Below are positions 6,917 to 12,259 of a stretch of 64,000 nucleotides of DNA, one piece after another. The number at the start of each line of letters is the position of its first letter. Positions within the stretch are counted from its first letter, which is position 1. Both the position numbers and the translations under genes were made by a program. The notes beneath the pieces are model-generated. The model did no database searches. It saw only the letters and a list, made by a program, of their open reading frames with translations, and was not told the DNA's origin. Source of the stretch: a virus; the IMG/VR virus record IMGVR_UViG_3300032242_001694. One strand, written 5' to 3'.

Positions 6917-7098
6917 TGGCTCAGGGTTACCACCATCCCTGAGAGCCGCTGTCTCGCCGCGGCGGATTGTATCGGGTCGACCAATTAGTCGGGCTCGGCT
7001 GCTTCCCCGGACTTCTGATTAGCCGGCAATCATACCCACCTCACGCAGCAGACGGCGTGGATGGCAGCTATAGGTTTACCCAACACCTATAGCGTGTC
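6917..7098 (-). ncRNA. putative structured ncRNA ending in hairpin-CCA
   Basis: GC-rich intergenic block with several hairpins (9-bp GCTATAGGT/ACCTATAGC; 7-bp CTCAGGG/CCCTGAG then CCA). Confidence 0.5.
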
Positions 7099-7174
7099 TG
7101 GTGCCGGCACCAAGAATCGAACTCGGGACCTGATGATTACAAATCAACTGCTCTACCATCTGAGCTATGCCGGC
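7099..7174 (-). tRNA. tRNA-Thr(TGT)
   Basis: canonical cloverleaf, CCA; 5' end overlaps the upstream CDS stop. Confidence 0.95.
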
Positions 7175-7677
7175 CAATGCTTATTGAATCTTTCGAAGTA
7201 TAGGGTTAAATCTTCTTTTGTATCATCGTAATATTTTGCAACGTAGTCAGACTTAACAGCTGAGTTAATATTCTCACACATTGCAACGAGAGTCAACTGT
7301 TCTCTTTGAAAGCCCATGTTATTTAATTCGCTTAAAAGCCACTTCCAATTACCACCGCGAATGATTCCTACCTCAACAAGAACAAGGTGATCATAGGATT
7401 GAAGTGTATGGATTAGCGTTCTAAACTCTGTAATATATTGATCTGCAGTTTGATCTGGATACGGAACTTCTACAGGAATTATGTCTAATGAGCAACCATT
7501 CTTTGACCACCCATGTGCGAGATGCATTGCGACTGTTGCAGAGTAATCCGGTGAGACCATCAACACTGCTGTATTTTCAGGATCAAAATTACTACTATCT
7601 ACGGAGGCGAGTAGATTTTGAATATACTCCCATTCCATCTCTCTTGTTACAAAAAATAGTGGACGTTTATTACTCAT
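7165..7677 (-). CDS. phosphoribosyltransferase-fold protein (divergent)
   Basis: LVLVEVGIIRGGN resembles the type I PRT PRPP loop (VLLVDDxxxTG); GGAGG RBS. Confidence 0.55.
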   Translation of the reverse strand: MSNKRPLFFVTREMEWEYIQNLLASVDSSNFDPENTAVLMVSPDYSATVAMHLAHGWSKNGCSLDIIPVEVPYPDQTADQYITEFRTLIHTLQSYDHLVLVEVGIIRGGNWKWLLSELNNMGFQREQLTLVAMCENINSAVKSDYVAKYYDDTKEDLTLYFERFNKHWPA

Positions 7678-7692
7678 GCTACCTCCGACAAT

Positions 7693-7770
7693 TGGTCTGC
7701 GTGGCTGGATTCGAACCAGCGGTCCCCTGACTCCAAATCAGGTATGTTAACCAGACTACACCACACACAG
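7693..7770 (-). tRNA. tRNA-Pro(TGG)
   Basis: cloverleaf, C1-G72, TTTGGAG loop, CCA. Confidence 0.9.
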
Positions 7771-7831
7771 ATGAATAAGTCCTATCCCACCGTAGCGGGA
7801 TAGGGGCTGCTGGACGCACCATGCAGCGTTG

Positions 7832-8257
7832 TTAGATCATTCGCTTTAGAACAAGCCGACAATAACTCGACTTACCAGGCGTGCGATCTACACTCGTAGA
7901 ATATAGAGTCGCAGCACCGCATAGATCATTATTAGATTTATCAAGAGCCATCTTAAGGTACTTAAAAGAGTACTCAAGGTTGGTCTCAGGATCTAAGAGT
8001 CTATCACAGCTCTGTTTAAAGCCGATCTTCTTTGCAGTATTGCAGTTAATCTGGCCTAAGCCATACTCACCGCGAGCGCCTCTAGCATGAGGCTTATAGT
8101 TAGACTCCGTTTTTATAAGAGCCTGCGCAAACGCTACAGGGATCTTATACTCGGTTGCTTTCTTCGTGACAAGCTCGGGAATGTCCTGAGCATATAAAGT
8201 TGAAGTTAATGAAAACAACGCTACCAGTCCTATAAGGACCGTACTCGTCTTTCTCAT
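7832..8257 (-). CDS. lytic transglycosylase (SLT domain) with signal peptide
   Basis: catalytic ES motif (IKTESNY), GLGQI motif, LLDPETN, ATLY; N-terminal signal. Confidence 0.85.
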   Translation of the reverse strand: MRKTSTVLIGLVALFSLTSTLYAQDIPELVTKKATEYKIPVAFAQALIKTESNYKPHARGARGEYGLGQINCNTAKKIGFKQSCDRLLDPETNLEYSFKYLKMALDKSNNDLCGAATLYSTSVDRTPGKSSYCRLVLKRMI

Positions 8258-8343
8258 TCGCTCTCCTTTTGTTGGTTGCGGCGGACCGCAAAACTAGTTT
8301 CTGCTACTTGTCAGTAGCGCGAATTACTATTTATCATATCAAG

Positions 8344-8418
8344 TGGTGCTAATGGCTGGTTTCGAACCAGCTTGGGGCATCTTATGAGGATGCTACGATG
8401 CCGAACCGTCCCACTAGC
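8344..8418 (-). tRNA. tRNA(CAT), Met or Ile2, atypical D-arm
   Basis: CTCATAA loop, G1-C72 paired (not initiator), CCA. Confidence 0.8.
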
Positions 8419-8428
8419 ATTATTAAGA

Positions 8429-9148
8429 TCAGAACTTTTCCCACTTGTCTAGAGATACTTTGCCCATCTCAAAAGTTTTTAACTCAGGCTTTAGTACCAG
8501 ATTTACGTCGCCTGCAATAGACAGGCGACGACCGGTAAACCTACCATCGACGTTTGCCGGATGGCGATCTACCATGTGCTTGGTCTCACTGAGGAACACG
8601 AGAAGCGTACCTTCTGTAACCTCGATCGGGAACCTATTAGTGTTGTACTCATTAACTTCATCGATAAGTGAATCCTCAATAGGCCGATGAAGGCATAAGA
8701 TATTATCCATAATCTTCTCACTTTGGTCGTTCATGATCCAAAGAGCGTCGCATAGATTTGGGGCTTCTGGATAGTAGACGAATGACACGTCAGAGGATGG
8801 ATGATAGTGAGGTGATATAGCAGCCATGCCGTGATCGTGAGCAATGTCCGGACTATCTACGATCACCATTGAAGAGCGAGTGATGTAGTAGTCAAAGTGT
8901 GTTTCTCTGAGGCGATACGCTTTAAGGTACCGCTTTACCTCAACGATAATATCGTCGTATAGAGGTTTAAGAACTGGATCTTGGTGCATCGTAGCTTTTC
9001 CAGCATACTCACCTTGGACCAGAGTTCGAGAAGGAACAAACGAGTGTTTATCGTATACTTCCATAATTCTCTTATAGTGTTCTTTATGTTTATCCAAAAC
9101 ACAAGAGTAGACAAGTGTTGGAAATAACGTATACATTCTATTGTTCAT
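8429..9148 (-). CDS. putative 2OG-Fe(II) oxygenase (TIGR02466-like)
   Basis: LFPT N-terminus, HYH...S.VYY, EG.L.VF.S...H.V, RLSIAGD. Confidence 0.8.
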   Translation of the reverse strand: MNNRMYTLFPTLVYSCVLDKHKEHYKRIMEVYDKHSFVPSRTLVQGEYAGKATMHQDPVLKPLYDDIIVEVKRYLKAYRLRETHFDYYITRSSMVIVDSPDIAHDHGMAAISPHYHPSSDVSFVYYPEAPNLCDALWIMNDQSEKIMDNILCLHRPIEDSLIDEVNEYNTNRFPIEVTEGTLLVFLSETKHMVDRHPANVDGRFTGRRLSIAGDVNLVLKPELKTFEMGKVSLDKWEKF

Positions 9149-9168
9149 GTCATTCCTCCATAATCAGT

Positions 9169-9243
9169 TGGTACCAACTACAGGTATCGATCCTGTTCCT
9201 CGAGAGCCACAATCTCGCGTGCAACCTTTGACACTTAGTCGGC
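9169..9243 (-). tRNA. tRNA-His(GTG), alphaproteobacterial type
   Basis: TTGTGGC loop; C at -1, G1:U72, A73. Confidence 0.9.
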
Positions 9244-9249
9244 GTAAGT

Positions 9250-9327
9250 TGGTGCCCCACCTCCGATTCGAACGGAGAACCTCTTGCTTCTAAGGCAAGC
9301 ACCTCTAACCAGTTGGGCCAGTGGGGC
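9250..9327 (-). tRNA. tRNA-Leu(TAG), short variable loop
   Basis: CTTAGAA loop, short variable region, A73, CCA. Confidence 0.88.
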
Positions 9328-9335
9328 AATAGTTG

Positions 9336-11134: not shown

Positions 11135-11138
11135 AAAT

Positions 11139-11213
11139 TGGTACCCAGTGACGGGATCGAACCGCCGACAATCTCCGTGTAAAGGAGGAGCTCTACCTCT
11201 GAGCTAACTGGGC
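11139..11213 (-). tRNA. tRNA-Val(TAC)
   Basis: canonical cloverleaf, CCA. Confidence 0.93.
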
Positions 11214-11218
11214 ATATT

Positions 11219-11294
11219 TGGTGGAGAATAACGGGATCGAACCGTTGACCTTCTGAATGCAAATCAGACGCTCTCCCAGCTGAGCTAATTCCCC
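11219..11294 (-). tRNA. tRNA-Ala(TGC)
   Basis: canonical cloverleaf with G3:U70. Confidence 0.96.
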
Positions 11295-11300
11295 GATCTT

Positions 11301-11376
11301 TGGTGAACCATGCAAGAGTCGAACTTGCGACAAAGAGATTAAGAGTCTCCTGCTCTACCAACTGAGCTAATGGTCC
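11301..11376 (-). tRNA. tRNA-Lys(CTT)
   Basis: canonical cloverleaf, CCA. Confidence 0.94.
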
Positions 11377-11381
11377 TAAAC

Positions 11382-11478
11382 TGGCCAGTTTTATCCACAT
11401 CTTACTCTTGGGCTATAAGGCTTACGCAACTTAATCGGGCGAGATAGCTTGCCTGTAGTGGACCGGGCGACTGGAACC
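11382..11478 (-). ncRNA. putative ~95-nt structured RNA ending in CCA
   Basis: ends pair (CCAGT/ACTGG; TCCAC/GTGGA) immediately before CCA. Confidence 0.4.
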
Positions 11479-11484
11479 GGTAAC

Positions 11485-11569
11485 TGGTGGACAGGGTTAG
11501 ATTCGAACTAACGTAGCCTGAGGCGGGAGATTTACAGTCTCCTGGTATTAACCACTCACCCACCTGTCC
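11485..11569 (-). tRNA. tRNA-Tyr(GTA)
   Basis: class II cloverleaf, CCA. Confidence 0.94.
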
Positions 11570-11570
11570 A

Positions 11571-12000
11571 AAGCAAAAGGCTCCGTTGCGATATCTTGCG
11601 ATACGACTGCCGAGTAGTTCCTTTTGCCAATTGTATTGCTGCTCTGAGGATTCGCACCTCAGCCCCCATTTTCCTAAACTACTCGGGGTTACGGGATCTG
11701 ATGACCATCTCCTATCTTACCCTTTTCGTCAACTGGCTATGCTCGTCTCATACACCAAGCAGCAAACTCTAAATTCTCTCGCCGTTTGTTTATAGAGGGG
11801 ATCGGCGGCCCTCTACTGGTAAGCACAAGAGACAGACCGCGGAGACCGTCTCTATAGTAATCCAGCGACTCAAATTGGTCTGGGTTTGTCCTAGTGAAAG
11901 AGTCCCAGAACGGATTTGTGATGGGCATTGAATTGCCACCTCGCTCATCCTAACTCTCATCCTCATTTGTGGGCGAGGACTTAACCGCCTTTCGGCTCCC
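11571..12000 (-). ncRNA. ~430-nt block of structured non-tRNA RNA(s), including a tRNA mimic at 11636-11765
   Basis: no credible ORF; many stems, a T-arm-like hairpin, 8-bp acceptor-like stem, long-range 10-nt complementarity. Confidence 0.55.
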
Positions 12001-12003
12001 TAA

Positions 12004-12080
12004 TGGCTCCGAGTGTTGGAATCGAACCAACCTGATGAACAGATTAACAGTCTGCTGTCCCACCTTGTGACCGACTCGGA
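12004..12080 (-). tRNA. tRNA-Asn(GTT)
   Basis: CTGTTAA loop, U1-A72, G73, CCA. Confidence 0.9.
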
Positions 12081-12088
12081 ATAAACTT

Positions 12089-12259
12089 TTATCTCTACAA
12101 AGACACTACATGAAACCAAATTTCGGAGTCGGGTGCTTCCCTTCCTTAGCCATTGATCAGGTTGTCTTAGAGCGGCATGATGGCCCAATCGCTCGTAGCC
12201 TATGCGTCCATAGGCGGTACCCCGTGTAGTGTCTGTGAAGAGATAACCGAAGTTATCTC
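12089..12259 (-). ncRNA. structured leader of the tRNA operon
   Basis: long closing stem (12101-12110 with 12225-12234; 12089-12096 with 12239-12246) and a cUUCGg hairpin at 12240-12259. Confidence 0.55.

Follow-up and report, generated by a model that had tools for sequence, protein, structure and literature searches.

The 64,000-nucleotide stretch of IMG/VR record IMGVR_UViG_3300032242_001694 analysed here (hereafter the window) belongs to an uncultured lake phage, a T4-like myovirus, and its predicted proteins include a tail sheath, large terminase, portal and major head protein, the gp45/gp44/gp62 clamp and loader, and RegA. It carries an array of tRNA genes that is interrupted by non-coding blocks, which are the subject of this analysis. 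ARAGORN predicted 21 tRNA genes between positions 4319 and 12080, on the minus strand only. A 22nd tRNA (9172–9243, minus strand), missed by ARAGORN and with an unusual T loop, matched Rfam at 42 bits and, according to our own reading of its anticodon loop, is a putative tRNA-His (anticodon GUG). All 22 tRNAs have an encoded CCA end, and a short A/U-rich linker follows each. An earlier reading of this DNA, made from the sequence alone (the sequence-only reading), had proposed that the operon also carries seven structured non-tRNA blocks. These correspond exactly to the long non-coding gaps of the array, and the listed coordinates stand, except that the block at 11571–11765 consists of two modules rather than one, giving approximately eight modules in all (Table 1). 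Comparison with related phages supports the view that most of these blocks are discrete RNA modules, as opposed to filler or decayed tRNAs.

Table 1. Features of the operon start and of the non-tRNA modules within the tRNA array, listed from the operon start onward.
Feature	Coordinates	Strand	Description	Basis
Sigma-70-type promoter	12308..12336	-	TTGACA, 17 nt, TATATT; between the helix-turn-helix gene and the leader	Consensus scan, 11/12
boxA-like element	12277..12287	-	GCUGUUUGACA	Sole match in the 64 kb window; 0.12 expected by chance
Leader RNA	12086..12259	-	UUCG hairpin, then a stalk of ~20 bp around a conserved multi-helix cargo of ~115 nt	Comparative
B6 (orphan)	11876..12000	-	~125 nt; ends in stem UCUGGG/CCCAGA, CCA, AUUU	Read from sequence
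B5	11770..11872	-	103 nt; P1 (GCUGG/CCAGU), P2 (8 bp), P3 (UAGAGG/CCUCUA), invariant internal loops	Comparative
B4a (tRNA mimic)	11633..11767	-	8-bp acceptor-like stem, D-arm-like hairpin, T arm (loop UGCGAAU)	Fold and synteny
B4b	11572..11628	-	Hairpin with GCAA tetraloop	Comparison with locus L176
B3	11382..11484	-	~100 nt; closed by CCAGU/ACUGG, then CCA, GUUUA	One relative
B2 (orphan)	9795..9890	-	Three hairpins, tail ending CCUACAACCA, then AUUC	Read from sequence
B1 (orphan)	6917..7098	-	182 nt, 58% GC; 9-bp hairpin, long rod, 7-bp terminal microhelix, CCA, AGUUUAU	Fold and composition

None of the blocks matched any of the 4,227 models of Rfam 15, even at E ≤5. This includes the tRNA model (RF00005), the signal recognition particle (SRP), transfer-messenger RNA (tmRNA), 6S, YrlA and self-cleaving ribozyme models, as well as GOLLD and ROOL, which the sequence-only reading had named as examples of large RNAs associated with phage tRNAs. 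ARAGORN called no tRNA within the blocks and no tmRNA within the window, and no block was significantly similar in sequence to any of 842 tRNAs from the clade. Searches of GenBank phages with blastn gave no match for 11570–12003, for 6910–7098 or for the leader, and megablast matches were to tRNAs only. As had been claimed, the blocks are GC-rich (46%–58%, versus 38%–43% in neighbouring open reading frames [ORFs] and 54% in the tRNAs).

For comparison, 80 IMG/VR loci were collected using gp44 as an anchor (≤78% identity), and the total set reached about 190 loci after conserved-core pattern scans and one metagenome scan. In the gp44-anchored loci, the array usually has the position seen in the window, closely following regA and a small helix-turn-helix (HTH) gene on their downstream side. 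The majority lack every block of the window, and many relatives have tRNAs packed 2–7 nt apart with no such blocks. Nonetheless, homologues of five of the eight modules were found in other uncultured phages; without exception they lie within tRNA arrays, and their neighbours are mostly different. The remaining three (6917–7098, 9795–9890, and 11876–12000) are orphans with no relative. The sequence-only reading had looked to covariation among homologues, and compensatory changes do keep helices in four modules (the leader, B5, B4b, and B3). Near-identical pieces of the window were present in contigs of several metagenome runs on lake water that belong to different studies, among them contigs of four lake runs with near-identical copies. 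No GenBank phage has a head protein more than 68% identical to that of the window, the nearest being Stenotrophomonas phage DLP_6, the Methylophilales Melnitz phages and the Sinorhizobium phiM12 group. The cultured relatives DLP_6 and the Melnitz phages have the HTH gene, with no annotated tRNA genes after it in the regions fetched, and hence offer no cultured model. Two other genes of the array were also used as anchors: no viral relative was found with the 2-oxoglutarate (2OG)-oxygenase gene, and metagenome loci from the Joint Genome Institute anchored on the GATase gene, at ≤69% identity, lacked all of the modules.

The leader RNA, which lies behind a promoter and a boxA-like element at the start of the operon, is 82%–93% identical in nucleotide sequence across 12 IMG/VR contigs, although the RegA, gp62 and HTH proteins encoded there are only 50%–78% identical. 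In an alignment of nine leader sequences, compensatory change is seen at 17 of 52 pairs, with 97.8% of the cells paired. None of 500 shuffles reached 17 such pairs, and slid controls gave 0–3. The flanking stalk accounts for 20 of the pairs (7 with compensatory change, all cells paired), and the cargo it encloses contains long invariant single-stranded segments. In one locus (L086), the leader RNA is placed between tRNA-Glu and tRNA-Ala, and is therefore a gene-like unit, not only an operon leader. A covariance model further showed that the same stalk frames a different cargo in L087 and a short insert in L006. It frames an anticodon-less tRNA look-alike in two other loci (L001, 3532–3678; L079, 5640–5786), and in L003 (5457–5519) it is empty. 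Hence, the stalk behaves as a reusable frame. Upstream of the leader, the motif GCU(C/G)UUUGACA is kept in L004, L081–L085 and L179 despite diverged flanks. GCUGUUUGACA is a candidate boxA by its likeness to the Escherichia coli boxA consensus, and the element may represent an rrn-type antitermination site.

Module B5 shows a comparable combination of conservation and mobility. An exact 18-mer from its core was found in 13 IMG/VR contigs, all in tRNA arrays and between different tRNA pairs, where the module typically begins about 2 nt after the preceding CCA end; it was not found in about 165 other related loci. The homologue in L179 is 97% identical, and the sequence on both sides of it is unrelated to that of the window. 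In L176, a B5 homologue is joined directly to the hairpin module B4b, and the intervening tRNA mimic is missing. The core has about 45 invariant nt, which include long invariant single-stranded segments. Helix P3 has three compensatory pairs, and P1 and P2 never vary. The B5 family also occurs as two tandem copies approximately 100 nt apart in two loci (L178, 7578–7733; L180, 1502–1657).

The two modules of the neighbouring block differ in kind. B4a is the only block that is tRNA-like in architecture, with approximately 75 nt in place of the anticodon arm and no encoded CCA. Relatives carry variations on this design in the same slot: L085 (5266–5334) has a 69-nt cloverleaf with an anticodon arm consisting of a 5-bp stem with a tetraloop, and L089 and L179 have longer anticodon-less versions, in which GNRA-capped hairpins show compensatory differences. 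The hairpin module B4b is 92% identical to its homologue in L176, and all six internal substitutions form three compensatory pairs. On the minus strand, CCGAGUAGUU in the tRNA mimic (11677–11686) is an exact 10-nt complement of AACUACUCGG in the hairpin module (11605–11614). This complementarity is not kept in L176, L089 or L179, and L176 keeps the hairpin sequence without any mimic.

Module B3 has a single relative (L085; 83% identity over 104 nt), and both lie directly after tRNA-Tyr. The consensus fold of the two contains one compensatory pair, with a second recognised by eye. The three orphans were searched for more widely. Neither blastn (word size 7) nor nhmmer found a homologue over 171 loci, whole-record searches of five related contigs gave only 14-nt chance matches, and the one match from a scan of GTDB genomes was a chance match of 21 nt in a contig of an unrelated metagenome-assembled genome. 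Exact-pattern scans of IMG/VR with the cores of 6917–7098 and 11382–11484 likewise returned nothing new. Near-identical copies of B1 are present in three other lake runs, and near-identical copies of B2 in contigs of other lake metagenome runs. The slot of B6 is occupied by unrelated sequence in L179 and L089. We also considered 6917–7098 as an SRP-like RNA, as one loop holds GGAAGCAGCC; this candidate was rejected because no SRP model matched and the hairpin geometry is wrong.

In addition to their content, the borders of the blocks resemble those of tRNAs. The sequence-only reading described four blocks as ending in a helix, CCA and the spacer that follows true tRNAs, and all four CCA ends are where it placed them. 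Three of them are immediately 3′ of a stem, namely 6919–6917 (7 bp, CUCAGGG/CCCUGAG), 11878–11876 (6 bp, UCUGGG/CCCAGA), and 11384–11382 (5 bp, CCAGU/ACUGG). In these three modules, with a helix of 5–7 bp abutting CCA, a discriminator base exists only if the last pair opens. The fourth (9797–9795) departs from the description, with AA between its 5-bp stem (GUAGG/CCUAC) and the CCA. The linkers that follow fall in the commonest classes found after true CCA ends among the 842 clade tRNAs, in agreement with the claim about the spacer. The commonest 5-mer ahead of tRNAs in the clade is UUUAU, and the N−1 base is U in 64% of tRNAs.

We extended this comparison to 207 non-redundant long inter-tRNA gaps from the clade. 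CCA ranks first of the 64 trinucleotides directly 3′ of a perfect 5- or 6-bp helix, and a 6-bp helix followed by CCA occurs in 10.8%, compared with a trinucleotide mean of 6.8% (sd 1.6). Twenty gaps have a helix+CCA end no more than 9 nt from the next tRNA. Eight of these, each with a T-loop-like motif, could be mimics or tRNAs that escaped recognition. Others are plainly of another type, for instance recurrent elements with GGCCCGU/ACGGGCC followed by UCCA. Elements closed by a 6–7-bp helix, then N and CCA, occur at L085 5532–5641, L008 16759–16937, and L180 4633–4984, which suggests additional families of CCA-ended non-tRNA RNAs in relatives. In the window, three of four long tRNA-to-tRNA gaps end in CCA, versus 20% of the 207 clade gaps (binomial p ~0.03). 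The helix+CCA punctuation is thus real, but present in a minority of gaps.

Several other features of the array and its surroundings were recorded. Protein genes interspersed with the tRNAs (3633–10979, minus strand) encode an OmpA-like beta-barrel, a tryptophan-halogenase-like protein, an SLT lytic transglycosylase, a 2OG-Fe(II) oxygenase and a GATase/BPL_N-like protein. Mechanically listed ORFs overrun tRNA genes at 7165–7174 and 10299–10335. Three perfect TTGACA-17-TATAAT promoters are present on the minus strand (9678–9706, 12723–12751, and 6031–6059); one lies inside the array ahead of ORF 9336–9647, and another within the halogenase-like gene. Ahead of ORF 4472–4702, at about 4712–4719, is TATAAATA, which we take to be a T4 late-promoter motif. 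Between the SLT gene and tRNA-Pro are two strong hairpins (7771–7831, minus strand; z −5.2), the second of which is terminator-like with a weak U tract, and these may serve as a partial terminator or 3′ end protector. The array has no tRNA-Phe or tRNA-Glu, both of which are carried by relatives. A predicted tmRNA gene (tag ANDDSYYGDYALAA) in L032 (5877–6214) lies about 5 kb downstream of gp44, at approximately the position where relatives have their arrays.

The blocks are modular, structured and bordered in the manner of tRNAs, and five of the eight are conserved. We consider it more likely than not that each is a small-RNA gene of its own, and that the phage tRNA operon has taken up a series of them in the way that it holds tRNA genes. 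The small-RNA arsenal envisaged in the sequence-only reading gains partial support from the modules with homologues in phage arrays and maintained helices; the three modules with no relatives lend it none of this kind. Release by tRNA-processing enzymes and stabilisation by CCA, also proposed there, are suggested by the sequence. Under this interpretation, the sigma-70 promoter at 12336–12308 would give rise to one long transcript, with the boxA-type site preventing termination. RNase III would cut the stalk of about 20 bp around the first RNA, and RNase E would cut the A/U linkers. RNase P is documented to base-pair with 3′ RCCA and to act on substrates other than tRNAs (PMC11143913; PMC12710915); here it would cut at the 5′ end of the next tRNA and possibly at helix+NCCA ends. 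Trimming by 3′ exonucleases back to a helix or CCA could then leave the modules to accumulate as stable small RNAs, like species 1 and 2 of phage T4. As for their role, the modules most likely engage host enzymes that handle tRNAs or stable RNAs by imitating tRNA ends, and it is this imitation that suggests such enzymes as partners. They are probably not mRNA regulators. If the RNAs do mimic tRNA ends to engage or disarm host enzymes, they would represent a novel, RNA-based class of phage counter-measure.

A number of observations weigh against reading the blocks as small-RNA genes with tRNA-type ends. Fold energies relative to shuffled sequences are unremarkable (z −1.0 to −1.5 for six blocks, +1.2 for 11377–11484), with the leader alone standing out in single-sequence folding (z −3.1), and the case for structure must therefore rest on comparison. 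The invariance of P1 and P2 leaves room for a DNA-level or protein-binding constraint on the B5 core. The three orphans have no homologue and therefore rest on composition and sequence pattern. CCA was not kept in either of the two cases in which it was followed through divergence; the CCA of B3 reads CAA in L085, which holds the one diverged copy known of any module ending in CCA, and B1 lacks one C of its CCA in a single contig variant of low depth. Moreover, the roles of processing enzymes are assigned by analogy with E. coli and may not fit the host of this phage.

The blocks could alternatively be cis-acting operon furniture, such as processing stems, exonuclease barriers and spacers that aid tRNA maturation, with no function once excised. 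Analogy with other operons would make the stalk, boxA-like site and A/U linkers signals for processing or antitermination, the stalk of L003 is empty, and CCA ends are not conserved, all of which would fit such an arrangement. A mere spacer, however, has no need of long invariant single-stranded segments that recur beside different tRNAs, as seen in the leader cargo and the B5 core, and block-free relatives manage with closely packed tRNAs. We therefore regard this explanation as unlikely, though deserving of consideration.

A more specific proposal for the function of the modules is that of decoys, which the sequence-only reading had raised together with antitoxins. Helix+CCA microhelices and anticodon-less mimics, made in bulk by the tRNA-maturation enzymes of the host, could offer decoy acceptor ends and in this way titrate host defence toxins, or enzymes that target the acceptor stem or the 3′ CCA of tRNAs, thereby sparing the real tRNAs. 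Conceivable targets would be nucleotidyltransferase or pyrophosphokinase toxins. If this were the case, the patchy, cassette-like distribution would reflect an arms race. We offer this idea speculatively, and both the decoy function and these example targets seem doubtful at present.

It is also improbable that the blocks have no function at the RNA level and are tRNA genes in decay, scars of recombination or small mobile DNA elements gathered in a recombination-prone region. Their distribution is patchy and mosaic, three of them are orphans, and B4a is clearly tRNA-derived in architecture. In addition, tRNA regions of T4-type phages are known sites of exchange driven by homing endonucleases (PMC2330249). 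Decay, however, does not account for the lack of similarity to clade tRNAs and to the tRNA model, for compensatory changes that maintain helices in four modules, or for conservation above that of neighbouring protein genes and GC content raised to the level of tRNAs. It is scarcely credible that some blocks encode small proteins, since the ORFs of 58–63 codons that overlap them (e.g., 11737–11928 and 11790–11966, minus strand) cross module borders that are mosaic in relatives, and B5 homologues have a conserved core without codon periodicity and differ by indels of 1, 2 and 6 nt, such that coding is excluded for B5 by those that are not multiples of three.

Viewed as a set of small-RNA genes, the modules invite comparison with several known systems. 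The layout is like that of a miniature rRNA/tRNA operon, with RNAs that are exchanged between phages as cassettes. The operon start recalls rrn leaders in its order of promoter, putative boxA site, small hairpin and a stem of about 20 bp flanking a structured RNA, but the RNA enclosed in the window is approximately 115 nt and is not rRNA. The tRNA mimic B4a and its relatives recall the tRNA-like domains of YrlA and tmRNA, in that the acceptor stem and T arm are kept and the anticodon region is replaced. B4a differs from these in having no long Ro-binding stem, tag reading frame or encoded CCA, and the Rfam YrlA model scores in the window only on true tRNAs. GOLLD and ROOL are uncharacterised structured RNAs that are often found beside phage tRNA genes. 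Unlike these, the modules of the window are 55–180 nt each and are independent cassettes rather than one large RNA. The leader cargo, with its 17 covarying pairs, and B5, with its invariant core of about 45 nt, provide alignable targets for work on structure and function, and neither is in Rfam.

The closest parallel, and one that the sequence-only reading aptly drew, is with phage T4. To our knowledge, the two stable RNAs of the T4 tRNA cluster have had no function assigned in approximately fifty years. These RNAs (rnaC and rnaD) are described as stable RNAs of unknown function in PMC2330249. Species 1 (rnaC) and species 2 (rnaD) are 119–139 nt long and are annotated directly after tRNA-Arg (NC_000866, 70908–71171). 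Like the modules of the window, they are non-coding, lie on the tRNA strand inside a tRNA cluster with short A/U linkers, and have no Rfam family. The end of rnaD is a helix followed by CACCA and AAUUA, resembling four of the blocks, and rnaC has a canonical T arm and closing stem, resembling B4a. A search with nhmmer using both T4 RNAs gave no match at E ≤10 in the window or the approximately 190 related loci; given the shared features without homology, the likeness is one of kind, not of family. The window differs from T4 in having about eight modules instead of two; these include an RNA that is framed by a stalk and preceded by a boxA-like site, as well as cassettes that are patchily shared among many phages. 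T4 represents the small end of a much richer phenomenon, in which a widespread freshwater clade of T4-like phages carries sets of uncatalogued RNAs in its tRNA arrays, some of them very strongly conserved.

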